The notes beneath the pieces are model-generated. The model was not told the DNA's origin. It searched no databases and saw only the letters and a list, made by a program, of their open reading frames with translations. The position numbers and the translations under genes are program-made. A stretch of 64,000 bases of DNA from IMG/VR virus record IMGVR_UViG_3300027759_003166. One strand, 5' to 3'. Positions 12,413 through 31,920 of the stretch are shown here, one piece after another. The stretch's first letter is position 1; every line of letters starts with the position of its first letter. The DNA comes from a virus. Its lineage: Duplodnaviria; Caudoviricetes.

Positions 12413-15085
12413 TTATTCAAAGCTGAATAATGAACCAAAATTATTTGTTTGTGTAGTAGATTCTAGATCCCACTCTAGAACTCCGATAAGATTATCGAGT
12501 TTATTATTAATAATAACAGTTTCCATATCAGCGTGATCAAATGGTAAGTCTTGAAACCATTTAGGTAGTCGTAGTTCGTCAACCGGATATGCCACGCTGG
12601 TATAGCCAAGTGGATTATCTTTTAACTTACAAACAATTACTTTCATACCATCGACAATATTGGTGCTGTATTTGTCACCATTCATACGTTTAAGAGTATT
12701 CCAGTTGATACTAGCACGAACATGTCCGGGCATATTTGCTTTACCTGCCTTACGTTCTTTTTCTTGATATTCAGCAATGTTGTTGGCACGTTTAGGACTA
12801 CCCTTCTCCCATCCAGGTCGTGCTTTAAATTCAGTTCTAAATTCATTAATCATATCAAGAATTTCTTCTTCCTGACTACCATTTAGAACTTTGGTTAGTA
12901 CTTCTTCAAGAAACTTCTGCATGAATTCTGGAGTATCGCTACGTTTCAAATCTAAACCCATGGCTTTAATTTTGCCAGGTTTAGTATCACTGTCATATCT
13001 CTTGCCATCCTTGTCATAGTACAATACAGCATAACGCTTTTTGGTAATAAACAAGCCTTTGATAGCAACAATTTCACGTCCTGCTTTAATAACTTCACCA
13101 CGTGATTTTGGACAGTGGAATGTATCTAACATGAATTGTGGAAATGTAGCATTAACATTATCTGCAATTGTATTGTATAGTTGTATAGCAATATCTTTAT
13201 CCCAAGGTAGTAATTTCTTTTGAATATCAATCTTTAATGTATTGTAGGCAGAGAAGTAACAACTGTCTGTATCACCATATATAATACTTTTACCAACGTG
13301 ATCAAAATCACCTGTAATAACTTCATTAACTTTACCTGCCATATGGCGAGCAATGGCACGACCGGTAAGTGTGGTACTTTGTCCAATACGCTTGTCAAAG
13401 AATCTGCAACCTGGATTCAAAATAGCACCGTACAAACTATTCAAGTTAATCTTCTTAACCAGTTGTCGTTTGTCCCAGTATTCTTCTTCAATCTTATTGC
13501 CGGCATCGATTGCTGCTTTAAGTTTCTTCTGCATGTCTTTACGCTCACTGTACCAGCGAGCCAGCAAGCCGGGAATAATACCTTCTTGCTCATGGGTAAA
13601 GATTGTGCCATTTGCACTGAGCATCCATGGGTTATTACTTTCATATATTAATCTATAAGCCTCGGCACCGCTTAGTATATCATACTCGCCATTTTCCCAA
13701 TCAATGGTAATTTCAAATGCACGATCTTGTCGCATTACTGCTTCGAATTCTAAGCTGCCAAACATACCTTCCCATGCAGCCGCAAAGGATTTTTTATCCA
13801 ATGTTGTTTGTTTATGAATAAATTCATCGGTATTAGTTTGTCGTATTTGTCCAACAATGGTTTCTGGACCCATATTCAATGCACGAATAACACTGGGATA
13901 TAGACTGTTAATGTCCATGCTTCCGATGTAATCATGTAATCCTTTTTTAGGATATGCTACATAAGCACCTGCGGCTTGATTGTTTTCAGTCTCATCACGC
14001 TTGGCACGACTTGGAACAATTAACCCTCTGTGATGTGCTTCATTAACAATTGCTTGTTCTGTTACTGCCACGGCACCCATGGTGGTCTGTAGCAATACAG
14101 TACATTCGTGTGCTAGTGTATTGGCAAGATCTATAAACTTTAGTTTCTTATCTAACTTATCAAGTAGTGCGGTATCTTGTCTATTGTATTCAATGAACTT
14201 GCGGAAGTCTTTATTATAAAGTTGATCCAGTGTACCTTCGTAGACAGTCTTGCTCTCACCTACTTCCATCTCTCCAATGGCATCGAGCCTGTAGGTATGG
14301 CGTTCTTCGTAGGTGTATTTCCTGTACAGTTCGAGACTGTCCAAATGAACGCGACCAATAAGATCATAAGTAACAGCCTGTTTCCCATATTTCTCGTATT
14401 CTCTCTTTTTTGGAAATTGATCCCACAAACAAAATCTGCGTGTATCTTCTTTGCTCAATACCTTAGTGACTCTATTAACAGTATAAGGAATATCAAAACC
14501 TTCACTATTCCAACCGCTTAATACATCAGCATCTTCAATTAATGTTAGAAATGCATCTAACATCTCTGCTTCTGTTTCAAACAACACAGTATTAGGAAAG
14601 TCCTTGACCTGTTCCTTAGCCTGCTCCATGGTTAGAGTCTTGGGTGGAACAGCAAAACATACCAGTGTGTCTAACCATTGTAAGTGAACAGCGATCGCAG
14701 TGATGGGCATAAAAGCATCTTCAGGAGTGCTATAGCCACGTTCCGGATCAAAGTCTACCTCAATGTCAAAAAATGCTACGTGTAATTTTGGTGGATCAAT
14801 GCCGAGATAATGATCTTCCAAACAGCGGAATGCTGGTTTGATATCGCTTTCGTAGAGTCTACGTTCGCCGTGGATGCGTAGTTCTTTTTGAAAGTCCTTG
14901 TTATTTCTACAAGTAACTTTATTTAGATTCTCACCGTAGATTGATTTGTACTTACCCTTTTGATCAGGATAATAAAAGATAAATTTGGCAGGATATTCTT
15001 GATAGATTCTACCCTTCTTTGCATCGCGCTCAACTACCTTAACAATATCTTTGTCGCGATCCCACCATGCGTCAACATATGACAT
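12413..15085 (-). CDS. family B DNA polymerase (T4 gp43-like)
   Basis: Exo FFDIEVD, SGWN, YNRQD; Pol DINSLYPS, KINLNSLYG, YGDTDS, KKRY. Confidence 0.95.
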   Translation of the reverse strand: MSYVDAWWDRDKDIVKVVERDAKKGRIYQEYPAKFIFYYPDQKGKYKSIYGENLNKVTCRNNKDFQKELRIHGERRLYESDIKPAFRCLEDHYLGIDPPKLHVAFFDIEVDFDPERGYSTPEDAFMPITAIAVHLQWLDTLVCFAVPPKTLTMEQAKEQVKDFPNTVLFETEAEMLDAFLTLIEDADVLSGWNSEGFDIPYTVNRVTKVLSKEDTRRFCLWDQFPKKREYEKYGKQAVTYDLIGRVHLDSLELYRKYTYEERHTYRLDAIGEMEVGESKTVYEGTLDQLYNKDFRKFIEYNRQDTALLDKLDKKLKFIDLANTLAHECTVLLQTTMGAVAVTEQAIVNEAHHRGLIVPSRAKRDETENNQAAGAYVAYPKKGLHDYIGSMDINSLYPSVIRALNMGPETIVGQIRQTNTDEFIHKQTTLDKKSFAAAWEGMFGSLEFEAVMRQDRAFEITIDWENGEYDILSGAEAYRLIYESNNPWMLSANGTIFTHEQEGIIPGLLARWYSERKDMQKKLKAAIDAGNKIEEEYWDKRQLVKKINLNSLYGAILNPGCRFFDKRIGQSTTLTGRAIARHMAGKVNEVITGDFDHVGKSIIYGDTDSCYFSAYNTLKIDIQKKLLPWDKDIAIQLYNTIADNVNATFPQFMLDTFHCPKSRGEVIKAGREIVAIKGLFITKKRYAVLYYDKDGKRYDSDTKPGKIKAMGLDLKRSDTPEFMQKFLEEVLTKVLNGSQEEEILDMINEFRTEFKARPGWEKGSPKRANNIAEYQEKERKAGKANMPGHVRASINWNTLKRMNGDKYSTNIVDGMKVIVCKLKDNPLGYTSVAYPVDELRLPKWFQDLPFDHADMETVIINNKLDNLIGVLEWDLESTTQTNNFGSLFSFE

Positions 15086-15098
15086 ATAATTTTTCCTC

Positions 15099-15155
15099 CT
15101 CGTGATTTAATGGCTCACTGACCTTCTCGTGATCAATTATGGCTGATCTGACCTT
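15099..15155 (-). promoter_or_regulatory. tandem hairpin leader (candidate translational operator) of the polymerase
   Basis: two imperfect direct repeats AAGGTCA-stem-GCCAT(A/T)A-stem-..GAG abutting the GAGG RBS. Confidence 0.5.
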
Positions 15156-15157
15156 AC

Positions 15158-15451
15158 TCATAAATTATTTAGCATCCTGAATAAGCCGATGCTATCTATA
15201 GTGACTAACAATACGTAGTTCGCAAGCAGCCCAAAAGACTTACGGCTATAGCAAGCCCAACCATATAAAATACACTGGCTAATAAAAATAGGATAAAGAA
15301 TGATAAGAGGCGGATTTGGGACTGTGAGCGCCATAGTGACACTACATCCGATTGAAGTTGCCCAAGCCGTAATCTCCACGATAAAACGTAAAGGGTAAGT
15401 TTTATAGTCATCCTTGATCCAATTAATGACATTAGCTAATTTTTCATTCAT
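15158..15451 (-). CDS. small membrane protein
   Basis: three hydrophobic segments; ATG at 15451 inferred. Confidence 0.65.
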   Translation of the reverse strand: MNEKLANVINWIKDDYKTYPLRFIVEITAWATSIGCSVTMALTVPNPPLIILYPIFISQCILYGWACYSRKSFGLLANYVLLVTIDSIGLFRMLNNL

Positions 15452-15716
15452 CAGTACGACGATGCGAATGTCCGCTGATATCCACGATAGTTTCCAAATC
15501 GTCAAACTCTTTCCAAACGCTGTCCCATTGATCTTTCTGTGCAATCTTAATTGCTTTTTTGATCACGCTGGGTTTGACTTCGAGTTCTTCTGCTACTGCT
15601 TTGATTGTATCGTTAAGGCCTTCGGTAAGGTCTTGAATTTCCTGCAGAACGGTCATGCCTTCTGCTACTATCTGTTTAATTTTGGCCTGTTCAGGCGCCC
15701 CAAATGATTTACCCAT
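15444..15716 (-). CDS. small helical protein, possibly DNA-binding (GapR/DsbA-like)
   Basis: coiled-coil pattern LTEGLNDTIKAVAEELEVKPSVIKKAIKIA; own sigma70 promoter and AAGGAG RBS. Confidence 0.5.
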   Translation of the reverse strand: MGKSFGAPEQAKIKQIVAEGMTVLQEIQDLTEGLNDTIKAVAEELEVKPSVIKKAIKIAQKDQWDSVWKEFDDLETIVDISGHSHRRTDE

Positions 15717-15736
15717 AAAAAATCTCCTTGTAAGTA

Positions 15737-15765
15737 AGTATATACTACGCAAGGAGTTCTGTCAA
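15737..15765 (-). promoter_or_regulatory. sigma70 promoter TTGACA-N17-TATACT
   Basis: hexamers at 15760-15765 and 15737-15742. Confidence 0.8.
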
Positions 15766-15773
15766 GGTTTATT

Positions 15774-16316
15774 TTATAAACGAGCGTCTATAATGTTCCA
15801 ATTGATAATTTTCCAATGATTATTTAGATAACCTTTTTTATCGGCTTGGTAATCCAATGACCAAGCATGTTCCCAAGCATCAATTAAAACAATAATATCT
15901 TTCTTTATAGAATGATTGGGAATTATTTTTATATCACCATTGCTTGATAGATAGCACCAGCCACTTCCTTGAATGGACATAAACGATTTGGTAAATTCTT
16001 CTTTGAAGTTATCAAAAGATTTAAAATGTTGATCAATAAACTCTTTGGATGCACCAATTGGTGTATTTTCTTCATCTGGAATCTGTAGTTGTGGAAAGTA
16101 TATACTATGTAAGTAAGCACCTGCTTCATTAAAGTCTAGATCACCTTCGCCGCTGTTATAGCGATTAACATAGGTTCTGTATAGTTTGCCATAATGATAA
16201 TCTATAGCATCTTCACTTAACACAGGTTCTAATGCATCTCGGGCATAGGATAATTTCACTTGTTCAAGTGTTTTGATCTCTTTGCCTTCTACTACATATT
16301 TTATAAAATTAAACAT
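15774..16316 (-). CDS. sod: Fe/Mn superoxide dismutase
   Basis: LEP..S....YHY, AYLH, GSGW, DAWEHA metal-ligand motifs. Confidence 0.85.
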   Translation of the reverse strand: MFNFIKYVVEGKEIKTLEQVKLSYARDALEPVLSEDAIDYHYGKLYRTYVNRYNSGEGDLDFNEAGAYLHSIYFPQLQIPDEENTPIGASKEFIDQHFKSFDNFKEEFTKSFMSIQGSGWCYLSSNGDIKIIPNHSIKKDIIVLIDAWEHAWSLDYQADKKGYLNNHWKIINWNIIDARL

Positions 16317-16906
16317 TATTTCTTTTTACCTGCTTTCATATTAGCGGCCCAATGTGCTAATTGTGCTGCTCGTCCTGAATGACTTTTGGCAAACTTTCTC
16401 AAACTGCTAATACTAGCATGTTTAGGAATACCGTGCCTTGCACTATCACCTTTATCCTCGGGATGACGTCCGTCAGCAAAATTCTCTGCTACATCCTGCT
16501 GACCTTCCACAGTAAGCCTGTCTAATGCTATTGGATTTAATACAACATTCGGTTTCAAGCCTTTGGTGTTAGCATAGGCCACATACACTTGATCTGTGGG
16601 TTCTATAACAAAACTCACACAATGTTTACCGGGCCAGTCTGGTTTGCCCACACTAAACCAAATGCCTATCACAGGAATAAATGGATGTTCATCTGTGCTC
16701 AACCGACCATATTCCCGTTCGCCTGTGGCGTCACGCCGAGGTTTTAGTCCTCCACTTTTCTTAATTGCTTCTAGCCTATTGGTACAATGATAAACCCTTT
16801 GCCCCACTATGTCTTGTCCAGGAAATAGATTCGTACCAGGAACATTCTTAGGTGGTCTAACTCCCTGGTAGTTGGTAAAGTTTTCAACTAGTTCGTTGAT
16901 ACGCAT
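16316..16906 (-). CDS. putative internal head protein: ADP-ribosyltransferase-like domain + basic C-terminal module
   Basis: N-terminus MRINELVE; VYHCT...GGL.P and GIWFS motifs; QQDVAE linker. Confidence 0.5.
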   Translation of the reverse strand: MRINELVENFTNYQGVRPPKNVPGTNLFPGQDIVGQRVYHCTNRLEAIKKSGGLKPRRDATGEREYGRLSTDEHPFIPVIGIWFSVGKPDWPGKHCVSFVIEPTDQVYVAYANTKGLKPNVVLNPIALDRLTVEGQQDVAENFADGRHPEDKGDSARHGIPKHASISSLRKFAKSHSGRAAQLAHWAANMKAGKKK

Positions 16907-17689
16907 TTAGCAATTCCATTTACGTAATGCCAATGCCTTGCGTGTAGGTTCACCATTGGGCTTTTTCATAGGACCATCAACTCCACCCATTCTAGCACAG
17001 AATGATTTACGGCGTTTGGCGGATTTACTGCCAGCTTTTAATTTACTGGGTTTAGTGGTAACTGCCGTTTGTAGTTTGCTACCAGGGTGCTCTCTACGAT
17101 AACTAGCAACACCTTTGGCATTTAGTCCGCCAGACTTGCTTTTGCCGGCCTTACGATGCCACGCAGCAGATTCATTTAATTCATCTTCTAAAAACGTATC
17201 AGCAAACTTTTCGCATAGTGCTCTAATGTCTGAGTTGTTTGTTTCTTGTAGAGTAAATTCTCTTTCTTCGTGTTCGTCGTCACCTTGGCTTGGATCCATA
17301 TAACCGCAATATACTTTACGTATGATAGAATTATTGATTAGATCGGTACAACTATCTCCGTGCCTTTCTTGTGCAGTTTCATCACTAAATTCACTGCAAG
17401 GACTCAGCGTAGTAATAAGAATACTGCCTTCTGGAATGTCACCATATTTTCTATCATAGGCTTCCATGGCTGCTTTCTCTGCATGAACATGTAAATCGCC
17501 TTGCATATAATTCAATCCTAAAACTAAATTATTGTCAGGATCTAATACAGCAGCAGCAACCATGCCGTAACGTTCGCTATCCCTTTTCTGGCCTTCAATA
17601 ACCAGTTTGCAGAGTTTAACCAAGATACCGTCCAACTTGGTTAGATTGCGTATCTCGTAGTCAGTTTGGTCAAACTCTGTAAATCTCAT
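16907..17689 (-). CDS. zinc-dependent nucleotide deaminase domain fused to basic C-terminal module
   Basis: HAE...TLSPC..(insert)..C deaminase signature; ELNE junction; N-terminus MRFTEF. Confidence 0.7.
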   Translation of the reverse strand: MRFTEFDQTDYEIRNLTKLDGILVKLCKLVIEGQKRDSERYGMVAAAVLDPDNNLVLGLNYMQGDLHVHAEKAAMEAYDRKYGDIPEGSILITTLSPCSEFSDETAQERHGDSCTDLINNSIIRKVYCGYMDPSQGDDEHEEREFTLQETNNSDIRALCEKFADTFLEDELNESAAWHRKAGKSKSGGLNAKGVASYRREHPGSKLQTAVTTKPSKLKAGSKSAKRRKSFCARMGGVDGPMKKPNGEPTRKALALRKWNC

Positions 17690-17738
17690 TTCTTTTTCAC
17701 CTTAGGCTGTCTTGCTTTATATAAGGCCGCTGTGGCCA

Positions 17739-18725
17739 TTACTTTTTTTTTTCTGGGGTCTTATTTTTAAATTGGTGATACTTATTTGGATCAGCATTTT
17801 GGAAGTTATCAACCCAAGCATCTAAATCCATAGTAGGTTCCAATTGTCTCTCTACCATTTGCTGTAGTGATTCAAAGTATGGATCACCTTCCGCCACACC
17901 TTGCTTGCGACTTTGGATAACTGTTCCACTTTGTTTTAAATATTTTATTACTTGTTTTCTAATTTGATTTGGATCAGTTAAACCGCCATCTAAACAATTA
18001 TCAACTATTTCAATAGCCAATTGTTGATCCATATCATCAATTAAATTAAATTCTTTTATAAAATGATTTCCCATCTTAATTGCTTCTGGACTATACATTC
18101 CTTCATGATCACCCTCCTCCATACCTTGCTCTTCTTTTCTTTTACCAAATGTAGCATGTACAAGTTGATCTAATTTTGCATGGAAATTAGTTTCAGCATC
18201 TTTGCTAAGTCCTGCATCACCTTCCGCCACACCTTGCTGCTCACCGTTGATACTTTGTAGCACACTATTCAAGTAGTCTGCGGCTTTAGTAATTTTACTT
18301 TGTTGCCAAGCATCAAGTCCTTCTTGTTCGCTATAACGTTGTACCATGTCTAATAATGATTGAGCATTTTTAGCAATGCTCATTAGTTCGCTACTGGCCA
18401 TTTGTATTTCGTGATCAGGATGATCTCTGTCTTCCATAAAAGGTTTTTTATGTTTTTCTTTGCGTGGAATAGTTTTGCTTTTATCTTTGTGAGCACCGGC
18501 ACCTGCCGTTTTGGCATTCTTAGCAACAAAGTTTCTTGGAGTACTTGCTGGAACAGTTTTCTTATCTGCTTCTTGTGCAATTAGATTATTACCACGTTTG
18601 CGTGTACCGCCTATGGGCATACTAACACTGGCTACACTACCTGAACTGGTGCCGCCTCCACTAGCATTTTCTAATACATAACGAGTTACCTCGCCTTGTG
18701 ATAATTTTTTAAATTCGTTGTTCAT
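17739..18725 (-). CDS. modular putative internal head protein with QGVAEG linkers (C-terminus possibly frameshifted)
   Basis: two QGVAEG and one QGMEEG linker; A10 tract at the stop. Confidence 0.65.
   Translation of the reverse strand: MNNEFKKLSQGEVTRYVLENASGGGTSSGSVASVSMPIGGTRKRGNNLIAQEADKKTVPASTPRNFVAKNAKTAGAGAHKDKSKTIPRKEKHKKPFMEDRDHPDHEIQMASSELMSIAKNAQSLLDMVQRYSEQEGLDAWQQSKITKAADYLNSVLQSINGEQQGVAEGDAGLSKDAETNFHAKLDQLVHATFGKRKEEQGMEEGDHEGMYSPEAIKMGNHFIKEFNLIDDMDQQLAIEIVDNCLDGGLTDPNQIRKQVIKYLKQSGTVIQSRKQGVAEGDPYFESLQQMVERQLEPTMDLDAWVDNFQNADPNKYHQFKNKTPEKKK
17883..17905 (-). repeat. QGVAEG linker DNA repeat copy
   Basis: ATCACCTTCCGCCACACCTTGCT, identical to 18216-18238. Confidence 0.85.
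18216..18238 (-). repeat. QGVAEG linker DNA repeat copy
   Basis: 23-bp exact match to 17883-17905; related copies at 18108-18130, 19895-19910, 20066-20081. Confidence 0.85.
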
Positions 18726-19063
18726 TTTGTTTTCATCCAATTTGATACAGGGCTTACTGTATGTGTTCCTTTAGGTTCAAGACTACCTCGTTGAACAATT
18801 ACTTTATTTTTAAAACCCATCTTCTTAGCAGCATTGACAATCATTTCTTCATCGACATCTGAATATGCCCATGCTGCCGGAACATCTTTAGCAGGTCCTT
18901 CTGTAGGTGCATCATGATCTGGCATACCTGCAGACATTATACCTAATCTATAAAAATCGTAGTATTGATCAGCTCCGTGAAATTGTCGCCCGTGTGGTAG
19001 TGTACGTTGTGCCTGTTTATGCAGACCTTTCTTACGTTCTATGATAAACTCAGTTGCTCTCAT
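18722..19063 (-). CDS. putative internal head protein (paralogue A)
   Basis: N-terminus MRATEFIIE; ends VSPVSNWMK. Confidence 0.65.
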   Translation of the reverse strand: MRATEFIIERKKGLHKQAQRTLPHGRQFHGADQYYDFYRLGIMSAGMPDHDAPTEGPAKDVPAAWAYSDVDEEMIVNAAKKMGFKNKVIVQRGSLEPKGTHTVSPVSNWMKTK

Positions 19064-19430
19064 TTTTCATCCAATTTGCTACAGGACTAACGATATTAGT
19101 ATCATCGGGTTCTTTGCTCTTGCTACGCTTGGTTAATTCTTTACTATCTGTAGGAATAGTTGCCATTGCTTGTAATACCATCATATGTTCAATGTCTGTG
19201 TAAGGAAATGCTACATTGTATTTTTCCACAAAACTTGAACTATCCATATCTACTGCTTTTTTATTTGATCCATCTGCCATAGCAGTTGCCATCCAAATTC
19301 TATTCAGATGATAGGTGCGATCATACCCGCCAACATCTCGCATCCTGGTAGCACCTTGGTTGGCATTGTCCATATGATGGTGCATTTTGCCGCCCGGTGT
19401 TGCCTCTGAAATGAATTCTTTTGCTCTCAT
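19050..19430 (-). CDS. putative internal head protein (paralogue B)
   Basis: N-terminus MRAKEFISE (ATG 19430); ends VSPVANWMK. Confidence 0.65.
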   Translation of the reverse strand: MRAKEFISEATPGGKMHHHMDNANQGATRMRDVGGYDRTYHLNRIWMATAMADGSNKKAVDMDSSSFVEKYNVAFPYTDIEHMMVLQAMATIPTDSKELTKRSKSKEPDDTNIVSPVANWMKNESN

Positions 19431-19434
19431 AGTA

Positions 19435-22400
19435 TTATTTATTACTTTTGGATATTGCTTCATTAACAATAATCTTATTGATGAGAGCATCCATAATGTT
19501 TTCAATATCTTCACTTACTGGAATACAAATGTCTTTACCGTTTTTAGTACCAGCATAACGTTTACCTTTCCAGCAGGCCTTACCGTCAACCCCTTTGATC
19601 TTTTCTTCAATGGGTTTGTCATTGTGTTGAACGCTATCACCGCCAACTAAATCTCCAGCCTGAGCAGGTTTGTTTTTCTTAGGTCCAGTATTCTTCCATT
19701 GTCCAGCAGGTCCAAGTTTGTTCTTTTTACTACCTGCAAAGTTACTTGCTGGCATCATCTTTTCGGCAACTTTCTCATCCTTCTTAGGTTCTGGTTTAGG
19801 GATACTACTTGGAGTACGAGCAAGACTTGCGTCGCTCTTAGCACGTTGTTTCTGTTCAGCATTCCATAAACGTTGAGCAGCACTCATACGAGCCTCCGCC
19901 ACACCTTGCTTTGGTTCTGGTAAGCGTAACTTTTTACGCATCTCAGGGCTTGTATCTTTTAAACGTTTCTGTTGTTCTTTATCTTGTTTTGCTTTTGCTT
20001 CTGGACGATTTCTACGCTGTTCTTCACGATCACCGCTTGGTGTACGATTATCCATCTCTGCCAAGCCTTCCGCCACACCTTCGGCCATTTTAACGTGATG
20101 TCTATCCAACTCTTGTTTCAATGCTGCTAATTTGTTTGGAGCACGAGCAATAGCATTACGGATCTCCCCGGCAACGTTCTTTGGAATCTTACTTAATACA
20201 TCATTAACAATCTGATCAACCTGTGCATTCTGTTGTCCTACTGCTGTACTTTTAGGTGGCTTAATAGCTGGCTCATCCTGCTCATCACCTGATGCTTCGA
20301 GATCCATTAAGTATCTTTCGTATTCTGCTTTATTCTGCATCCAACGACGAGCATTTCTTGTCAGTTGTGGAGCATTGATTTGTTCGCCTAACTTGGCCAA
20401 TATTGGAGGTAGATTATTAGAGATGTTGCCAAATGATCTCTTCATTTCTAATTCGCCGTCTGCTTCTTCTCCACGTAAGAAGTCACGTAAATCTACGGTT
20501 CTACGAGTATTGTATTTGCATAGGTCGTGTAGTTCATTGTGTAGTCTACCTATGTACATATTTTGCACCCAACGGCCACCAACCCCTGCTGCTACCATTC
20601 TAAAGCCACGACCTAGTTCGCCATGATTCTCCATATACTTCTTAGCCTGGAATTTCATTGTTTCATAGACATTGGTAATAGGTTCTCCGATGTCGTTGAT
20701 AATGGATCGTAGTGTGCTGTCAATACTGGTACCTTCTACTAGGGCATTTAATATTCTTTGTTCTGCTATAGGAGCAGGTTCTGGTTGTGGCACAGGTGCC
20801 TTTGGTTGTTGTATTCCCATACCTTCCCTTGTTAAATCCATTAGGTGTTTAATCCAATTAACACCTAATTTTTGTACATCAAATCCTTGGCTCCAAACGG
20901 CTAATTGCTGTTGTTCAGTGGCGTTAGGATCTTTTAATATATTTCGTAGTTTAGTAAAACTCATACCAGTACCACGTGGTGTTATTTCTAAACTTACTTT
21001 AACATGTTCATAGCCTGGAAATTTATTAACACCCTTCATTAATGCCTGTGGCATAGTAAGACCTGCTTGATCTTCACCAACCATAATAATAACATTATCA
21101 TAGCGCGGCGGCTTGCCTGGTAGTGGATTAATTAATTCGTGCTTGATCTTTTGTAGTAATGATCCACCTGCTTCATTCACGGTACTAATATTCTTAGCAT
21201 ATTCTGGATATAGTTTGTGCCAAGTTTGTACTTTAACTGCCGGTGGTATTGGATCATCTTTACCCTGTGCATTGCCAATAAACAAATATGGATCCCCACC
21301 TACTGCTGCGGCTTTCTTTAATGTGTAATCAAATAATTGCTCATGACCAATATGTCCAACAAAACTACCAATAGCAACTACCGCTGTCTTAGCATCTCCT
21401 CTTGGACGTTCTGTTCTTGCATTTACCTTAGCAGCATTCTTAGCAGTGATAACATCACGTTGTTCCTGACTGGTAACTTTAATAGGACCTAGGCGACTAT
21501 TGATAACAATACCTTCGTAGTCTTTGCCCAACATATCTTTGCCAATGATGTTAGGGTCATTGATAATTGCTTTCTCTAATGCTGCGGCCACAGGTTCCAA
21601 TGCTGCCTTAACCTGACGTCGGGCTTCTAACTTGTTGCTGGCTAACATGGCTTTTAGTTCATCGATGTTCTCAACAGGTGGAACTAATGCTGTAACATCT
21701 AATGCTTCATTTTGTGTTAGACTATTATCAATAAACATAACACTGCCTGATTGTCCTACGCTGGTTAGCTCTTGAACAATTTTGTTTGAGTTAGGTAAAT
21801 CATCACCTGTGGTAGCATCTGTGATACGGAATGGAACCAATGCAAGTTTAACACCTGCTGGTAATTTGTCGTAGTGTATACCTACAAACTTTAGTTTACC
21901 TTCTGGAGTTTCTGTGGCAAATGGTAGATACAATACTTCACAGGTAACTTGTTTATTGACTAAAAATCCAGGTCCTAACTTGCTATCAACTAACTTAACA
22001 GCGTTCATCATTTCCGTAAATAGTTCATCAAATAGTTGAGCACGACCTAATACTTCTGGATCAGTAGTACCTTTCTTTTGATGATATGCTACAAAGCCTG
22101 GTTCGTATCTAGGTTCTGTTCTACTGGTGCCCATGAAAGGCTTACCTTCAGAATTCTTACCAAATCTGCCACCAAATCCGTCTACTTTGACGTTTAAAGG
22201 AATGTTTTGCAGTTTAAAATTGCCGTTTCCGTCGTGAATTTCGTCTAATAAATCTAACAAGTCAGCAGGCTTAAGATCGTGTAAGTGTGGCATACCTTTT
22301 CGGAATTGTGCCTTTACTTGTGCTTCTTCTTTTAATGGTTTAACAGCCTTGTTTTGAAATGCAGCAGCATAAGTAGTAGCCATTTCAATTGCTTGTTTTC

Positions 22401-23544
22401 TTAAACTAGCAGCATTGGCTAACTTCATATTTTCCAACATCCAATCTATGGCAGCAAATTTAATATCGCGGTCTCTTGCCGGATCATTTTTGGTGATCAT
22501 TTGACTACCTGGTTCAAAACATATACTAAAGAAACGTTGTGCTATTTCTTCTTTCTTTTGTTCGTTGAGATATTTGGCAATCAGTTGTACTGTACCGACA
22601 AAACTATTTTTAAGTTCTTGATCATTGCCTTTGGGTTTTCTACCAAAGAAGATTTCAAATTGTTGACCAAGATTTTGTATGTATTGTCTTGCACTAGGTT
22701 CAAGCAATTGCATTACAGGAATGCCATCCTTTTCCATAGGTTGCCCAGTAGCAGGATCCATGTAAGGAACATATTTCTGACTTACACCACCACCGCTTGG
22801 ACCGCTAACAGCAAAACTATAATCACTATCAGTTACAGGTGCATCAGATATCTTTGTACTTTTCTTTAATACACGAGCAACATATTTGGTACTGGCCTGA
22901 GAATAGGGTAATGCACGATCTAAAAATTTGTGGAATACACCTTTAATGTTTTGAGATATGTCATCCCAAGAACTGCTATGACTATATGATTGCCACTCTG
23001 TGGGTAATCCTGTTTCGGCTTCATGTGCTCCGTATTCAAAGTCAATTTGAATCTTAACAGGTAAATCTTTTAATTTGATCTCCCATAGGCTAACCCATTG
23101 ACTATTACCTGGAGTAAATCCCAACAACATGGCGTTGCTGAACATTTTACCTGTGTTATTTTGTAAGAATTGTCTAATTGTTTCAGCATGTTTGTCAGTT
23201 GCTTGTGTATCAATATCGCCTACCTTGGGTTTGACTCGGACAAATTCTTCATCAGATATTTTCTTATCCATGAATTGTAAAGTACTGCCGCTTAGAAACT
23301 TTTGAGTCTCTACAGAATTCTCATGCCAAAGCGGTTCTTTGAATTGCTGAGTAAATGCATCATTAATTGAATGTAGTGTTTGACTTACTACATCTTGTAC
23401 ATAACTACGGTCATGAACATGTAGATCTAATTCTTGTGCTTGATGATCACCTGGTACCCCTTGCCACCCTGGACTTTGGCTAGATACATTGCCACCTTCG
23501 GATAATGCTAGTTTAGGATTTCTAAATAGTTCAGATAAGTTCAC
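19435..23544 (-). CDS. 1369-aa multidomain protein: Pol-beta-like NTase + KxDG ligase-like + HIGH cytidylyltransferase-like domains + small modules
   Basis: SGS...GDID (23209-23220), VKVDG (22177-22188)...EGIV, GHIGH (21343-21354); GVAE linkers. Confidence 0.6.
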   Translation of the reverse strand: MNLSELFRNPKLALSEGGNVSSQSPGWQGVPGDHQAQELDLHVHDRSYVQDVVSQTLHSINDAFTQQFKEPLWHENSVETQKFLSGSTLQFMDKKISDEEFVRVKPKVGDIDTQATDKHAETIRQFLQNNTGKMFSNAMLLGFTPGNSQWVSLWEIKLKDLPVKIQIDFEYGAHEAETGLPTEWQSYSHSSSWDDISQNIKGVFHKFLDRALPYSQASTKYVARVLKKSTKISDAPVTDSDYSFAVSGPSGGGVSQKYVPYMDPATGQPMEKDGIPVMQLLEPSARQYIQNLGQQFEIFFGRKPKGNDQELKNSFVGTVQLIAKYLNEQKKEEIAQRFFSICFEPGSQMITKNDPARDRDIKFAAIDWMLENMKLANAASLRKQAIEMATTYAAAFQNKAVKPLKEEAQVKAQFRKGMPHLHDLKPADLLDLLDEIHDGNGNFKLQNIPLNVKVDGFGGRFGKNSEGKPFMGTSRTEPRYEPGFVAYHQKKGTTDPEVLGRAQLFDELFTEMMNAVKLVDSKLGPGFLVNKQVTCEVLYLPFATETPEGKLKFVGIHYDKLPAGVKLALVPFRITDATTGDDLPNSNKIVQELTSVGQSGSVMFIDNSLTQNEALDVTALVPPVENIDELKAMLASNKLEARRQVKAALEPVAAALEKAIINDPNIIGKDMLGKDYEGIVINSRLGPIKVTSQEQRDVITAKNAAKVNARTERPRGDAKTAVVAIGSFVGHIGHEQLFDYTLKKAAAVGGDPYLFIGNAQGKDDPIPPAVKVQTWHKLYPEYAKNISTVNEAGGSLLQKIKHELINPLPGKPPRYDNVIIMVGEDQAGLTMPQALMKGVNKFPGYEHVKVSLEITPRGTGMSFTKLRNILKDPNATEQQQLAVWSQGFDVQKLGVNWIKHLMDLTREGMGIQQPKAPVPQPEPAPIAEQRILNALVEGTSIDSTLRSIINDIGEPITNVYETMKFQAKKYMENHGELGRGFRMVAAGVGGRWVQNMYIGRLHNELHDLCKYNTRRTVDLRDFLRGEEADGELEMKRSFGNISNNLPPILAKLGEQINAPQLTRNARRWMQNKAEYERYLMDLEASGDEQDEPAIKPPKSTAVGQQNAQVDQIVNDVLSKIPKNVAGEIRNAIARAPNKLAALKQELDRHHVKMAEGVAEGLAEMDNRTPSGDREEQRRNRPEAKAKQDKEQQKRLKDTSPEMRKKLRLPEPKQGVAEARMSAAQRLWNAEQKQRAKSDASLARTPSSIPKPEPKKDEKVAEKMMPASNFAGSKKNKLGPAGQWKNTGPKKNKPAQAGDLVGGDSVQHNDKPIEEKIKGVDGKACWKGKRYAGTKNGKDICIPVSEDIENIMDALINKIIVNEAISKSNK

Positions 23545-23548
23545 AATA

Positions 23549-23908
23549 TTATCCTAACTTATATTTGTCTTTTTTAATATCTTCACGATAGTGATCATGA
23601 AGTCTATGGCACATATCATCTCTCATTTCTTTTGAAAACTCAGTGCCTAACTTGCCTTTTAATTCGTTATCGTGATAGTATTCTTTACAACCTTTAATTA
23701 CCATAGGCATATACATTTCTAATACTTGCTCAGGTGTACATTCATCTAAACTCTTTAGTTTACGAGCAATAGGATAGAAGTAATCTTTGTGTAGTTTATC
23801 GTGATCAATGATGTACCAAAATAATTCGTCGGCACGTTTATCATCGTCGGTGTCTTTGCCACGTTGGCTTATTTGTATAGGCTGATTAAAGAATTCTGTG
23901 AGTTTCAT
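23549..23908 (-). CDS. putative internal head protein
   Basis: N-terminus MKLTEFF; ATAAATA motif 7 nt upstream of ATG. Confidence 0.6.
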   Translation of the reverse strand: MKLTEFFNQPIQISQRGKDTDDDKRADELFWYIIDHDKLHKDYFYPIARKLKSLDECTPEQVLEMYMPMVIKGCKEYYHDNELKGKLGTEFSKEMRDDMCHRLHDHYREDIKKDKYKLG

Positions 23909-23922
23909 AATATGGTATTTAT

Positions 23923-24204
23923 TTAAGTTTGTTCTTCCAGATAATAACTACACCCTGGTATACCGTGTTGGCTATATCTCAAATTCCTCTCCATTGGATA
24001 AGTTCTGCACCCATCAGGCCTTGTTTCGTATATTTTGCATCGGCGAAATTCTTCATCAAAATGCTCGCACCATCGTGTAGTATACTCAACATTACCTGGT
24101 TTATAAACGCGAACTTTACAACATCCTGTATTACATCCGCCAAATGGATCACAAAAACCTTTGACCACAGGATTAATCCAAATAATCTCATTCATTATAC
24201 CCAC
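23923..24204 (-). CDS. YkgJ/CxxCxxCC-family Cys-cluster protein
   Basis: C....C..GCC...C......CKIYETRPDGCRTYP. Confidence 0.75.
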   Translation of the reverse strand: MGIMNEIIWINPVVKGFCDPFGGCNTGCCKVRVYKPGNVEYTTRWCEHFDEEFRRCKIYETRPDGCRTYPMERNLRYSQHGIPGCSYYLEEQT

Positions 24205-27200
24205 GCAAAGTATGTTAAATTAATTGCCGCAGCGTCAACAGCACCACCCCAGTTATGGAATGTTACACTTAATGTATTGGTACTACTTACCCATGCTGCT
24301 GCAACAAATACCCCTGCTGGTAATGTAGTACCAGGTGTAACTACTACTTTATGATTTGTGGTTAATCCTGTTACTGTAACAGTTTGTGTTCCGATAGACT
24401 GTTTTCCAAGGCTTGCAGGATCAATACTAACTTGTCCTGCTTTAATATTAGTTATACCTAAAAGTGAAACTGCTTGTGCCATCAATGTAGCAGTGTTAAG
24501 GCTAACTGTTACAGCACCTGTGGATGTTGTAACAAATATGCCAGTACCTGTGCTTATGCTGGTAACACCATTTATACCATAACTTCCTTGAATACCCTGA
24601 ACACCCTGACTACCGGTTATACCTTGAATACCCTGCGTACCTTGGTTACCAGTATTGCCTGTATTACCAGTGTTGCCTACATTACCTTGAATACCTTGAA
24701 TACCCTGCGTACCTTGGTTACCAGTATTGCCTGTATTACCAGTGTTGCCTGTATTACCTTGTATACCTTGAGTGCCCTGCGATCCGGTAATACCTTGTGC
24801 TCCGGTAATACCTTGTGCTCCGGTAATACCTTGTGCTCCGGTAATACCTTGTGCTCCGGTAATACCCTGCGTACCTTGACTGCCAGTATTGCCCTGATTT
24901 CCTTGGTTACCTTGGTTGCCTTGAATACCTTGACTACCAGCAGTACCTTGTGTACCCTGTATACCTTGTGGTCCTTGCGGTACAGCAGCACTGATTACAA
25001 TTGCACCTGTAGATGTTGATATGTAAATTCCGGATCCAGTAGTAATACTAGTAACACCGGTATTGCTAATTGTTGTACTTCCGCCTAAACTTGGACTTGC
25101 TACACTAACACCAATGCCTGCTCCAGCAGTAAATGTTATTTGACTAAATGCTAGTTTATTATTGGCAATACTGCCAGCCAACATATTGTTAGAGACTGTG
25201 CCAGTATCTGTGGTATAAACACCATTGGTCACTGTTGTTGCTAATGCTACTGCACCTGAAATCTTACTACCTGCCAACGAACCAATCCATGTAGGATTTG
25301 TATAAGTTTGATTAGCATAAACACCGTTGGTTACACTACCAGCATTACCAGATACAGTGCCAGTAACATTGCCAACCACATCACCAGTCAATGGTCCAAA
25401 GAAACCAGCACTAGTTACCGTATTAGCAACATTTAATCCATTAGCAGTAATAGTTGCTTCAATGTTTCCTGCCAGTGTTCCATTGGTGAAAAACACTATT
25501 CTATCTTCAGTAGTACCTATGGCTAGATTACCATCTTGTACAAATAGATATCCATCGTTGGCACCATTTACCTTCCAAGTGGATGTATTATAGTTACTAC
25601 CATTAATACCCATATCGATATAATAACTACCATCGTCGCCTATGTCATTGACTGCTACAAAATCAGATGATGATTGTGTTCCAGCGTTATGGTTAATGTT
25701 TACTACTTGCCCATAACTATTTAAATCATTATCAACTTGTAAAAGTGCGCCAGGGTAGAGATTATCTTCATTTAAAATACCAAACTTACCACCAGCAATA
25801 ACTCTTAAATTAGTTAATGTACTATAGGTAGCAATTAATTGTTGTGTGTTAATACCACTGCCATCAAAATCCCAATATTGTTTGGATCTATTCCATAGTA
25901 TAGAAGCAGCAAGATTAGTGCCTGTTCCTAATTGTATACCACCGCCATCAAGTTGTGATATATTAGATGCAGTTGTTCCTAATATGAGTATTGACCCTTC
26001 GACTGTATTTGGAATTAAATTAGTAAGATCACCAGTATAATTTAACGTACCATTGATATTAACATCGTTGAATGTAACATTACTTGAGGGAGCAAGGTCT
26101 TGTGGCAAACTTAATGTGATACTACCATTAGTTGATGCAGTTGCTCCGTTAACATTGATTTGATTTGCCGTACCTGCTAAGGATAAAACACCAGTACTAT
26201 CTAAACTGATAGAGTTGGCTAATCCACCACCGCTTAGACCGACACCGGCTATGACCTCAACTACGGCTACAGTGTCTAAATTATTAATCAAACTAACATC
26301 TACTGTACCAGTAAATGCTGTAGTTTGTCTTGAACGATCATAGAATGTAATACCACCATTAACATTACCATCAAAGTCTATACCTCGATCGTTGAATATA
26401 GTACTGGTTGTGATAACATTAGAACCATTGGGGGTAGTTTGTATTACTACCTGTGTGCCAGCAGTAGTATTGGTAAAGTCTTGTGTAGCCTCAACAGTAA
26501 TACGACCAATGCTTTGCACATATTGATTATCACCGTATCCTTGTGTAGAGAATCTAAGTAGGATGTCTTTGTTTTTAACGGCAGTAGGTGCTTGGACCGT
26601 TCCTCTTGCTGCACGACCTGCGATAACAGGGTAAGCACCAGTACCAAATGCATCAACACTAATCCGAGTTGCAATTCCATTCTGTCCTGTAATCTGCAAC
26701 ATTGTACCAGTAAAGTTGCGAGGTTGTTGGATACCCGCGGCATTACCAATAATGCTAAGTGCTGACTCTGATATAGAAATATTTTGTTTTGGAAATACGG
26801 TAACTAATCCCTCACGTGTAATTTCAAATACTTTATAACCATTAACATCATTCATCTTCACAGGGCGATTAAAATTAACATATCCTGTAGCAGTTGTACT
26901 ACCAACAATAATATCTCTGGCGTTATCAGCAATTATAATTTGGTTATCCTGAAATGTAAATTCACCGACCTTTAGCCCAGCAGATCCTATAATAGTAAGT
27001 ATATCATTTCTTGCGGTAATACCTACATCGTTGTCTTTAATTTCATCTTTAATAAAGATTGATCCACCGCCTAACCATAGATGTCTCCAACGATTAAGCA
27101 CCGATCCTAAACTTTGAACATTATTTTCTAAGGGTATAAGATCCTTGCCTAGAATAATATTACCATCTTGTCCAGGATTTAAGAACAGACTAGTATCATT

Positions 27201-28462: not shown

Positions 28463-29161
28463 TTATGCCGTCATTAAGTTCTCCCGTAGTATGAATTCTT
28501 CTACTCGTTTGACATTTCCGCTGGCAAACAGCCCAATCATAGTCAAAGTTTTCTCATCTTTGACATACATAAACGGATTGTATAACCATCTATGTTTAGA
28601 TTCTAACCACTTTTTAGAATTTTTACTAATGTTTATAGTATCAGGAAACTTAGCAGCCCATTCGGCAAATGCCAATCTACCCTCCATGGACCATGATTCT
28701 TTAAGATATACTTTATACTTGTATCCATCCTTGGGCAATATATCACGCAGAATCTTCTTATGCCCATTATCTAGCATATAATTAAGTTCTTCTTCTGTAG
28801 TAGGGCCAGATATTCTTTCTACCCAAGGTGCAACTGCTTTGTAGATATTCTCCAACAATACAGGATCTTTACAAAAGATATTATAATGCTTACCTTCTAC
28901 ACGAGTTTGTAGCTGATCTTTCAATGCTAGAAACGGCTCTAACCCTGTGGTAAATGCTAATAACTGGGCTTTGTTTTCTTTGCTCAATTTATCATTACTT
29001 TGCCAACGCCATAGAGCAGGAGCCGGTTCACCAAGACAGAAATCTTTAGTTTGATCAACACCGGCCCAGCGTAATCTACTGGCCCCACTGATATAGCATT
29101 CTATCTTGTAGGGCCATTTGTTATAGAATAACTTACTGGATGGTAGCTTCTGTATCTGCAT
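28463..29161 (-). CDS. hypothetical protein (232 aa)
   Basis: ORF overlapping clpA end. Confidence 0.7.
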   Translation of the reverse strand: MQIQKLPSSKLFYNKWPYKIECYISGASRLRWAGVDQTKDFCLGEPAPALWRWQSNDKLSKENKAQLLAFTTGLEPFLALKDQLQTRVEGKHYNIFCKDPVLLENIYKAVAPWVERISGPTTEEELNYMLDNGHKKILRDILPKDGYKYKVYLKESWSMEGRLAFAEWAAKFPDTINISKNSKKWLESKHRWLYNPFMYVKDEKTLTMIGLFASGNVKRVEEFILRENLMTA

Positions 29162-31409: not shown

Positions 31410-31912
31410 TATTTGTACTTTCTCTTTACTTTAGTTTTCTTAACTGCCATAGCCCATTTAAGGCTGCTGACTCGATCTTGGAATGTAATTCCCTCAAGAT
31501 GATCATATTCATGTAAGAAGCACTTACAGTTATAACCATCAAACTCTCCTTCTTCAAATTCTCCTCGGCTATTCTGCCAACGAGCCTTAATTGCTTTAGG
31601 TCGTTTAATATTAACATATATTCTTGGAAAACTCAAGCAACCTTCTTCCATATCAGCAATTTCTTCTGTATTACCAATTATAACAGGATTAAAGAATGCC
31701 TGAGCAGCTTCTGGATTTACTCTATGCCCCATAACAAACACACGGGCAGCAATGTTTACCTGATTAGCAGCAAGTCCAATGCCGTCAGCGGCAAACATAA
31801 TTTCTAACATTGCCTTTTCAAGTTCTACAGGATCCATTATAGGATTAGCAAAGTCAAAATCAGGCATACGTTGCCTAAGTATCGGGTCGGGGAATTTTAT
31901 AAGTGTCAACAT
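31409..31912 (-). CDS. def: peptide deformylase
   Basis: GIGLAANQV, EGCLS, HEYDHLEG. Confidence 0.92.
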   Translation of the reverse strand: MLTLIKFPDPILRQRMPDFDFANPIMDPVELEKAMLEIMFAADGIGLAANQVNIAARVFVMGHRVNPEAAQAFFNPVIIGNTEEIADMEEGCLSFPRIYVNIKRPKAIKARWQNSRGEFEEGEFDGYNCKCFLHEYDHLEGITFQDRVSSLKWAMAVKKTKVKRKYK

Positions 31913-31920
31913 AATAATAT

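Follow-up and report, generated by a model that had tools for sequence, protein, structure and literature searches.

An in-frame DNA linker as a candidate protease site and cassette exchange point in predicted head-cargo genes of a lake phage

Why do several genes of one phage join unrelated protein modules by the same short peptide, and why is this peptide encoded by the same codons? The question is raised by a 64-kb window (the whole stretch of DNA that was analysed, 64,000 nucleotides), whose source is probably an uncultured freshwater (lake) jumbo phage distantly related to T4. The closest matches of the DNA polymerase of the window phage are those of Sinorhizobium phage Phosso, Agrobacterium phage Atu_ph07 and Salicola phage SCTP-2. 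Seven consecutive genes (16316-23908, minus strand) begin with M-R/K/N-x-x-E-F/L. They are interpreted here as a putative cargo array (T4 internal-protein/Alt type), in which several genes would be strings of small, independently folding modules.

All six linker copies listed in an earlier note on this DNA were found at their positions; they are on the minus strand, in frame, and spread over three ORFs. Three are in the 328-aa gene (17739..18725, minus strand): linker 1 (18216-18238, QQGVAEGD) and linker 3 (17883-17905, KQGVAEGD) are canonical, exact copies of a 23-mer that gave no match in shuffled sequence, whereas linker 2 (18108-18130, EQGMEEGD) is decayed and has 3 mismatches. Two canonical copies are in the 1369-aa gene (19435..23544, minus strand): EGVAEG (20066..20081), at the end of the module of residues 932-1159, and KQGVAEA (19895..19910), at the start of the C-terminal basic module. 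The 14-mer core of the linker matches exactly at 19895-19908 and with one mismatch at 20069-20082. The 16-base cores reported at 19895-19910 and 20066-20081 are present, but they are different sub-windows of the 23-mer, with 13 bases in common. The last copy is degenerate (16481-16501, QQDVAEN) and precedes the NFADG C-terminal module of the 196-aa gene (16316..16906, minus strand). The consensus peptide, (K/E/Q)-Q-G-V-A-E followed by G/A/E/D, joins modules. A further GTGGCGGAA, at 57984-57992, is in an unrelated ORF, lacks the Q-G context and is probably a chance occurrence.

The flanks of the window copies are mutually unrelated, so that a single recent local duplication cannot account for them. 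In IMG/VR, the linker 15-mer was found in at least 120 contigs, at no fewer than 187 sites; among the matches listed, the GVAE frame is open at 181 of 187 sites. No record of the cultured-phage collection contains the linker DNA, and no paper describing this linker was found in the literature.

The four canonical window copies all encode GVAE by GGT GTG GCG GAR. In the window, GGT represents 0.50 of Gly codons, GTG 0.119 of Val codons and GCG 0.046 of Ala codons; from this usage, the chance of the same GVAE codons in 4/4 copies is ~6e-11. Ordinary codons are found in the decayed copy QQDVAE (GAT GTA GCA GAG) and in other VAE tripeptides of the window (KVAEK, IVAEG, DVAEN and others). Conservation of synonymous sites among relatives, a check proposed by the earlier note, was found: identical 12 bases encode 58 of the 77 GVAE peptides at loci of relatives that were identified by protein similarity. 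The bias reaches the codons flanking GVAE, even at positions where the residue varies. Position -2 of the relatives' linkers is encoded by GAG (22) versus GAA (2) and by AAG (10) versus AAA (5); position +1 is encoded by GGC (29), GGT (15) or GGA (1). The exact linker DNA is retained in 24/36 linkers with a non-Gly +1 residue. Linkers are identical between phages whose orthologous modules share only 37-59% of their protein sequence. Only 4 non-identical junction pairs have both flanks homologous, so that direct selection on the DNA and rapid turnover of junctions are indistinguishable here. The identity of the linkers probably persists because junctions made by exchange inherit the sequence, and junctions that do not exchange would decay; QGMEEG and QQDVAE would be the decayed junctions of the window.

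Internal HSP ends lie at most 4 aa from a linker in 80 of 286 cases (15.7 expected). Among the 288 junctions compared, 8 pairs have both flanks in common and 120 pairs have one flank in common, either upstream only (60) or downstream only (60). Versus L123, at 18216-18238, DNA identity is about 90% through the +1 Gly codon and random beyond. Versus L122, at 19895-19910, the upstream DNA is unrelated; from the linker onward it is 100% identical over at least 90 nt. Versus L121, four differences are concentrated within the linker, the 150-nt flank being otherwise identical; this cluster is unexpected under a simple crossover and hints at short conversion tracts or another process acting on the site. 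The nearest relatives, L121 and L122, have a different cassette between linkers 2 and 3, with flanks 87-91% identical to the window. Their DNA match stops at the decayed linker 2 (18108-18130); in L121, the same M3 module is followed at this position by a QGVAEG linker. Contigs from four lake metagenomes part from the window at linker edges: their loose ends are at 18218-18239 (linker 1), at 17887 and 17903 (linker 3) and at 20078 and 20081, in two runs (1369-aa gene). Some orthologues are devoid of any GVAE linker, and cassette content differs there too.

In its pattern, the linker is a point of cassette insertion, deletion and exchange within and between related phages. The order of the modules does vary, and the breakpoints fall at the linker, as seen in the HSP ends, the identity switches, the flank sharing of junctions and the replaced cassettes. 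The proposed lack of an obvious dedicated recombinase also stands for the window: none of its 59 ORFs scanned against Pfam matched a recombinase or integrase family.

The 328-aa protein (ATG at 18725) includes five or six modules: N-terminal signal, basic disordered head, helical hairpin, M3, M4 and a conserved C-terminal tail. Linker 1 joins the hairpin to M3, linker 2 joins M3 to M4 and linker 3 joins M4 to the tail. Its identity with L121/L122 is mosaic: 82% for the head, 98% for the hairpin, 100% for M3 and 92-93% for the tail, M4 being absent. The orthologues with the same head and tail have 328-1562 aa, and fifteen HSPs from relatives begin at residue 281, directly after linker 3. In structure predictions, linkers sit in disordered stretches separating helical modules; the AF2 pLDDT is below 50 at residues 162-183 (linker 1 region).

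The 1369-aa protein contains at least five separable modules: PHROG hits indicate a cytidylyltransferase-like stretch in the large, enzyme-like N-terminal part, and the C-terminal part is a string of small basic modules. Residues 925-1253 are missing from the L006 orthologue, and HSPs from L038, L056 and L103 stop at residues 1158-1161, i.e. at the linker 20066..20081. Further break points are found at L-V-E (20734-20742), KVAEK and PIEEK. In the 196-aa protein, the N-terminal signal is followed by a domain of unknown function and, behind the decayed linker, by the NFADG module; 22 of its 25 internal HSP ends lie at most 4 aa from the decayed linker. Its N-domain stands by itself in many homologues, and the NFADG module is widespread. 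The 260-aa gene (16907..17689, minus strand) encodes the signal, then a cytidine/dCMP-deaminase-type domain and, past an L-N-E junction (17171-17179), a DUF6321 module (Pfam). In L122 and L141, this module is the sole one behind an MRAxEFIxE signal, and one lake contig omits 17178-17684. The remaining genes of the array are two small paralogues with MRA-x-EFI-x-E starts (18722-19063 and 19050-19430, minus strand) and the first gene of the run (23549..23908, minus strand), with the N-terminus MKLTEF.

By its motif, the N-terminal signal of the seven genes resembles the T4 capsid-targeting sequence, MKTYQEFIAE (PMC8442874). In relatives, the consensus of this N-terminus is MRAxEFIxE; N-termini of this type are found in 6.6% of the relatives' ORFs versus 1.1% in control loci. 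The same modules follow either the Glu of the signal or the Glu of the linker (40 pairs). The NFADG module is preceded by Glu (P1) in 101/101 proteins and has V/L/I/M at P3 in 85 of them; the invariant Glu could be merely the first residue of the module itself. The prohead proteases of the gp21 type (Peptidase S77) follow a hydrophobic-x-Glu rule. The V-A-E of the linker fits this rule, which makes it, from its residues, a candidate cut site of such a protease. A T4 gp21-type protease (Peptidase_S77, above the Pfam cut-off) is encoded by two related linker-carrying contigs, those of L123 and L005 (L160, L161). The gene is close to a gp23-type capsid gene, with a scaffold-like ORF in between in L163; it is absent from the 64-kb window. 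The N-terminus of the capsid protein has the candidate sites L-L-E|G and L-S-E|S. A Pfam scan of five cargo proteins gave no hit to a peptidase family. The head proteases of T4, phiKZ and SPN3US all cleave after Glu (PMC5694885).

Like T4 IPI-III and Alt, the window proteins have a short N-terminal signal ending in E-F-I-x-E (here MRAxEFIxE) and are small, mostly basic, variable and non-essential in type; a T4-type S77 protease, cutting after Glu, is encoded by relatives. As with Alt in T4, the cargo would include enzymes, here a deaminase domain and a cytidylyltransferase-like part. Unlike the T4 proteins, which are single units cut once, several units with predicted internal sites are found per frame, and the internal site is fixed in the DNA and doubles as an exchange point. 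No similarity was seen between the window cargo and the T4 cargo protein sequences.

The explanation held to be probable, with some reserve, is that of modular head-cargo proteins in which the linker is both a candidate protease site and a cassette exchange point. At the protein level, one gene would supply the head with several small proteins, which cutting after Glu would release there. At the DNA level, the sequence of ~21 bases (RAG CAA GGT GTG GCG GAA GGY) would be the point of cassette exchange; in the simplest route, two linker copies would recombine during replication or co-infection. Chance, or one recent duplication in this genome, might be suggested by the two identical 23-base copies lying 333 bases apart within one gene, but there were 0 matches in shuffled sequence, the copies have unrelated flanks, at least 120 other contigs carry the same bases (at least 187 sites), and so do 58/77 GVAE peptides of relatives ascertained by protein. 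This origin is practically impossible, being ruled out by the IMG/VR matches, the codons of relatives and the flank sharing of junctions; the claim that the copies do not derive from one local duplication is thereby upheld. It is fairly unlikely that the ~21 bases have a nucleic-acid function of their own, as a target of a phage nuclease or site-specific enzyme that initiates the exchange or as an mRNA pause or processing signal at the borders of modules, the peptide being secondary. Such a function would agree with the retention of silent positions and of NAG at the residue-variable position -2, with the clustering of differences within the linker between otherwise identical sequences (L121) and with the ordinary codons of non-linker VAE sites; the capsid-targeting-like signal, presumed to be a protease site too, is without comparable letter-for-letter fixation. 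However, the motif is almost never out of frame, antisense or intergenic (181/187 matches listed are in frame), none of the 59 window ORFs scanned belongs to a nuclease or recombinase family by its hits, no start codon is at a fixed distance after the linker, and the run of four GG pairs is dispensable (exact DNA in 24 of the 36 linkers with non-Gly +1).

An uncut spacer is also to be considered: the linker would be a flexible part of polyvalent proteins, its DNA identity would come from a recent horizontal spread of cassettes, and it would have no role as a protease site. Polyvalent phage proteins that remain uncut, such as the N4 virion RNA polymerase, are known (PMC5512222), and the linkers are predicted to be disordered. 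The spacer leaves unexplained why modules in widely differing contexts are preceded by an invariant Glu and a hydrophobic P3, and why the linker Glu and the N-terminal signal Glu hold equivalent positions; moreover, linkers are identical between phages in which protein identity of orthologous modules is as low as 37-59%. The spacer is unlikely. Quite improbable is a bolder proposal, in which a phage enzyme dedicated to cutting or recombining DNA would recognise the 21 bases; an in-frame cassette system, a 'coding integron', would rebuild injected multi-effector proteins at high frequency in these lake phages, and the translated site would show the head protease where to separate the products.

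If modular cargo with a cut-and-exchange linker is the true reading, one short sequence would mean both 'cut protein here' and 'exchange DNA here', and phages would have a new route to diversity: small proteins, packaged in the head and probably injected, could be devised and exchanged with the reading frame intact. T4 members of this class include IPI, an anti-restriction factor, and Alt, which modifies the host. The linker could be used as a search handle: a segment between two linkers, or from signal to linker, would be a candidate independent cargo protein, and such searches could give large metagenome catalogues of candidate anti-defence or takeover effectors. It would also be a clean test case for a long-standing question, namely what sets the end points of modular exchange in phages. 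As a possible tool, signal and linker together could allow a single gene to fill T4-like capsids with several proteins.

The earlier note had likened the system to integrons and shufflons. Integron attC cassettes and shufflons rely on a dedicated tyrosine recombinase and on structured non-coding sites; whole genes are moved or segments inverted. The likeness stands as a functional analogy (a repeated short site bounds exchangeable cassettes, and one locus samples many cargo combinations), but the defining parts are missing: no IntI/Rci-type recombinase was found among the 59 scanned window ORFs, and the linker has ~21 bases, is in frame at 181/187 matches listed and has no evident palindrome. 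In T4-type genomes, PeSL cassettes consist of non-essential ORFs bounded by short conserved DNA elements; recombination between copies leads to insertion, deletion or replacement of modules, and a dedicated recombinase is unnecessary (Arbiol et al. 2010, PMC2839356; PMC4122927). The linker is likewise a short conserved element between the copies of which modules are gained, lost or replaced. PeSLs are intergenic, combine an early promoter with a stem-loop terminator and mobilise whole genes, whereas the linker has ~21 bases, lies inside reading frames, is frame-bound, encodes a peptide and moves protein modules. A promoter and terminator scan of 15000-24600 gave sites no more numerous than in shuffled sequence. 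The glycine-rich motifs of the gp38 adhesins of T-even phages are also conserved in-frame motifs between hypervariable segments, with exchanges between phages in or near the motifs, but they are structural core elements of a single folded domain, within a single gene family (PMC3157838); the linker is predicted to be disordered, unites unrelated domains across a wide range of genes and is a candidate protease site.

Polyvalent proteins (Iyer et al. 2017, PMC5512222) also carry many unrelated small effector-like domains per polypeptide, with predicted passage from virion to host and proposed peptidase processing. The word 'linker' has 0 occurrences in that paper, and no DNA-level junction is described in the passages considered; processing is attributed there to embedded metallopeptidase domains. 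At least two unrelated effector-type domains, as in polyvalent proteins, are found here (deaminase plus DUF6321), and the 1369-aa and 328-aa proteins are multi-module. A zincin-like metallopeptidase or a MuF/portal-linked architecture is reported in that paper for some of the polyvalent proteins; in the scanned cargo genes, no Pfam/PHROG hit to either was found. A T4-like cyanophage cluster, GC0119 (e.g. Synechococcus phage S-P4 AYR01841), has a C-terminal DUF6321, as has the 260-aa gene of the window, and a series of small modules that are basic or contain Cys, several borders of which end in Glu; unlike here, the borders are acidic stretches such as E-E-V-x-x-E and not QGVAE. The GC0119 proteins are annotated 'structural protein'.

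The linker, peptide (K/E/Q)-Q-G-V-A-E followed by G, A, E or D, was described in the earlier note as a 23-mer with shorter and degenerate copies, all of which were found. Exact copies of the 23-mer lie at 17883-17905 and 18216-18238, and the copy at 18108-18130 differs from them at 3 positions. The cores at 19895-19910 and 20066-20081 are two different 16-base sub-windows of the 23-mer that have 13 bases in common. The degenerate copy (QQDVAEN) is at 16481-16501. The copies are spread over three genes, as had been claimed, and every copy is on the minus strand and in frame: QQGVAEGD, EQGMEEGD and KQGVAEGD in ORF 17739-18725 (328 aa), EGVAEG and KQGVAEA in ORF 19435-23544 (1369 aa), QQDVAEN in ORF 16316-16906 (196 aa). 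All four canonical copies share the synonymous codons GGT GTG GCG GAR; GTG represents 11.9% of the Val codons and GCG 4.6% of the Ala codons of 70 window ORFs. The VAE tripeptides found elsewhere in the window (KVAEK, IVAEG, DVAEN and others) use GTT or GTA and GCA or GCC. The 23-mer was not matched in any of 100 dinucleotide-preserving shuffles, and the linker observation is confirmed to be far above chance expectation. An isolated GTGGCGGAA at 57984-57992, encoding RVAED without the Q-G context in the unrelated ORF 57708-58172, is probably a chance occurrence.

The 15-base linker core was found in at least 120 IMG/VR contigs, with up to 7 copies per contig among the matches listed. Among these listed matches, the GVAE frame is open for at least 80 codons at 181 of 187 sites (the remaining 6 comprise 3 sites at contig ends and 3 chance-like ones), and the peptide context is almost always (K/E/Q)-(Q/E/K)-G-V-A-E-(G/A/E/D). 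Because this set had been selected by its DNA, a second set of 39 loci was chosen on the basis of protein matches to the 328-aa gene. Synonymous sites are conserved in it as well: identical 12 bases encode 58 of 77 distinct GVAE peptides, for which codon usage gives an expectation well below 1%. Codon -2 encodes K, E or Q and has the bases NAG (GAG 22 versus GAA 2; AAG 10 versus AAA 5), and the +1 Gly codons are GGC (29), GGT (15) or GGA (1). This makes the conserved element about 21 bases long, RAG CAA GGT GTG GCG GAA GGY. The DNA fixation is specific to the linker, as is seen from two controls. Where a residue other than Q, E or K precedes GVAE, the exact DNA is used in 3 of 11 cases and other codons in the majority. 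The N-terminal signal of the cargo genes has no letter-for-letter fixation, its codon bias being limited to the first two codons after ATG; codon bias close to start codons is common. The common-codon control CAAGGTGTWGCWGAAGG was found in at least 120 IMG/VR loci, a total that is not comparable with that of the linker; among the matches listed, all 120 loci carry one copy each, chiefly in unrelated proteins, and 13 of them also carry the canonical motif. The comparison of silent-site rates at orthologous junctions comprises 2-4 usable pairs only. An exact 60-mer from the window had no match in IMG/VR.

The linker is a DNA-fixed in-frame junction at which cassette gains, losses and replacements end, and some of its copies decay. 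Module exchange with breakpoints at the linker, as proposed in the earlier note, was found in homology ends, junction pairs, base-level switches and the nearest relatives. When four window proteins were compared with all fetched loci, 80 of 286 internal homology ends fell at most 4 residues from a linker (15.7 expected), including 22 of 25 in the 196-aa gene; homology ends are enriched at the linker, the matches being non-independent and the binomial P of 3e-34 thus overstated. Among 288 distinct GVAE junctions, pairs from different contigs have only the upstream module in common in 60 cases, only the downstream one in 60 and both flanks in only 8. At the base level, the DNA upstream of the 19895-19910 linker is unrelated to that of fetched locus L122, and from the linker on at least 90 bases are 100% identical. 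The 18216-18238 linker gives the opposite arrangement with locus L123: identity is about 90% through the +1 Gly codon and random beyond it.

The DNA of L122 and of a further locus, L121, is 87-91% identical to the window. Their counterparts of the 328-aa gene keep the head, helical hairpin, M3 module and tail, with a larger, different cassette between linkers 2 and 3. The modules form a mosaic of identities (head 82%, hairpin 98%, M3 100%, M4 absent, tail 92-93%), and the degenerate QGMEEG of the window matches a QGVAEG peptide at the equal position in L121. Among orthologues sharing this head and tail, length varies between 328 aa, in the window (the shortest seen), and 1562 aa; some orthologues lacking any GVAE linker also vary in cassette content. 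Four base differences from L121, one of which changes Q to H, are concentrated inside the 18216-18238 linker, about 150 bases around being identical. This cluster points to either short conversion tracts or a raised local mutation rate at the linker.

Contigs from 4 lake metagenomes also leave the window at linker edges (17887, 17903, 18218-18220, 18237-18239 and 20078-20081). Their joints from 17906 to 18212/18220 and from 18239 to 20061 were rejected as recombinants: one side consists of only 20-22 letters, which are the repeat itself. Other break points also follow Glu: F-M-E (18432-18440), L-V-E (20734-20742), L-N-E (17171-17179), KVAEK and PIEEK. Hydrophobic-x-Glu borders thus form a broader class, of which the canonical linker is the DNA-fixed member. 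Lake contigs carry 657 additional bases between the 196-aa gene and the 260-aa gene (window 16886-16906); other contigs are without the deaminase portion of the latter (17178-17684), the signal then directly preceding the DUF6321 module. The two small paralogues of the array have the same C-terminal end, S-P-V-(S/A)-N-W-M-K (19050-19063 and 18722-18740), and their DNA match runs on into the next gene's start codon. Short identical DNA is thus shared by gene borders in the cargo array as well.

The 59 window ORFs scanned have no match to an integrase or recombinase family, in agreement with the earlier note. Linker copies most likely recombine in replicating or co-infecting genomes, leading to cassette exchange; this would be the scheme of the PeSLs in T4-type phages (PMC2839356), transferred into the reading frame. 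Each new junction would inherit the linker sequence, which would keep its identity, and junctions that no longer exchange would drift. The translated linker would be cleaved by the head protease. It is also possible that the linker functions in its own right as a nucleic acid, or that an enzyme targets the site. A G-quadruplex driver, suggested by four GG runs, was rejected: of 36 linkers with a non-Gly +1 residue, 24 keep the exact DNA, versus 38 of 45 with Gly, so the fourth GG run is unnecessary. The window ORFs include Radical_SAM and PTPS matches; a 7-deazaguanine pathway appears to be present in the phage genome, and such modification would argue against G-quadruplex structures. An internal translation start was considered on account of AAGG and GGAAGG, which are Shine-Dalgarno-like, but a start codon at a fixed distance is absent from the sites read. 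A rare-codon pause would involve GTG and GCG only, CAA, GGT and GAA being common, and leaves the letter-for-letter identity unexplained. In 15-24.6 kb, the T4 late promoter TATAAATA was not found, and sigma-70 promoters and terminators are at background level. The best sigma-70-like match of the region (11/12) is at 15737-15765 (-); the small ORF behind it contains KQIVAEG in ordinary codons. The reading of the linker as both a cleavage site after Glu and a micro-homology crossover point is supported; we infer the cleavage and the mechanism.

Several gene-level features suggest that the linker is a putative head-protease cleavage site. A Peptidase_S77 gene (T4 gp21-type) lies near a gp23-type capsid gene in two large related contigs bearing the linker system; in L163, the genes of these two types are separated by a scaffold-like ORF. 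The N-terminus of a related capsid protein contains L-L-E|G and L-S-E|S. The T4 rule, commonly quoted from Black, Showe and Steven 1994, is said to be Leu/Ile-x-Glu. T4-type and phiKZ-type head proteases cleave after Glu (PMC5694885). In the cargo array (16316-23908, minus strand), seven genes in a row begin with M-R/K/N-x-x-E-F/L. The consensus in relatives, MRAxEFIxE (6.6% of ORFs versus 1.1% in unrelated control loci), is much like MKTYQEFIAE, the capsid-targeting sequence of T4, which gp21 cuts off (PMC8442874). The same modules occur directly after the linker Glu in polyproteins and directly after the signal Glu where the gene stands alone; of 40 distinct pairs, 31 have the boundary at most 2 residues from Glu. 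Modules found behind both include DUF6321, NFADG, a Cys-rich module and the deaminase. The NFADG module was found in 101 proteins, behind a deaminase, an acetyltransferase, a phosphatase-like domain or other partners; it is preceded by Glu in all 101, with V, L, I or M at P3 in 85. In an AF2 model of the 328-aa protein, of low overall confidence (mean pLDDT 55), the three linkers are in stretches with pLDDT below 50 and M4 forms a three-helix unit predicted with confidence.

The family B DNA polymerase (12413-15085) shares 42-51% identity with jumbo myovirus enzymes (Sinorhizobium phage Phosso, Agrobacterium phage Atu_ph07, Salicola phage SCTP-2, Rak2-like group). The region is present in lake and freshwater metagenome runs that belong to many studies. 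Cultured phages have no DNA-level match to the linker region, no match to the region or the 328-aa gene in near-DNA and protein searches, and only chance-level matches to a 33-base linker query; a Dolichospermum phage match is unrelated. Other window genes encode collagen-like tail fibres, UvdE, sugar-nucleotide enzymes and a clamp-loader-like ATPase. Proteostasis genes (29133-32739 and 55435-56019) encode a ClpA/B-like ATPase, a peptide deformylase, a DnaJ-like protein and ClpP.

The junction would combine known kinds, T4-type head cargo and T4-type modular shuffling, in a dual-coded form that is highly interesting for phage biology. Its closest counterparts are T4 internal proteins and Alt, PeSLs, the gp38 motifs, polyvalent proteins and GC0119. 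T4 internal proteins and Alt have the signal and the putative protease logic in common with the cargo array. In PeSLs, short conserved DNA also drives shuffling, but between genes. The glycine-rich motifs of gp38 are likewise conserved in-frame motifs separating variable segments (PMC3157838). Polyvalent proteins likewise carry numerous effector domains per polypeptide; the word 'linker' does not occur in the paper describing them, nor is a DNA-level junction described in the portions consulted (PMC5512222). Integrons and shufflons are analogous in function only: neither their defining recombinase nor their site structure was found here. GC0119, a T4-like cyanophage structural protein, is a string of small modules ending in DUF6321, as in the window, but its borders are acidic and not QGVAE. 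In Synechococcus phage S-P4 (L165 1163-2752), GC0119 has 530 aa and consists of small basic and Cys-containing modules, several borders of which end with Glu. Full-text literature searches with the peptide and DUF6321 gave no account of the linker system.

Neither the PDB sequence search nor NCBIfam helped to name the cargo. The NFADG module (about 55 aa), which forms the C-terminal part of the 196-aa protein (16316-16480), is C-terminal in more than 100 proteins, with partners including deaminase, GNAT, HAD-like and DUF6321 domains, and may be a common tag, e.g. for DNA binding or packaging. For the N-domain of the 196-aa protein (16502-16906), whose AF2 model (mean pLDDT 56) is too poor for a fold search, a protein-atlas feature search pointed near PARP / Arr ADP-ribosyltransferase clusters (scores 0.88-0.90); this candidate ADP-ribosyltransferase relative is a lead only. 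The gene immediately after the cargo array (15774-16316) encodes an Fe/Mn superoxide dismutase whose N-terminus contains V-V-E|G.
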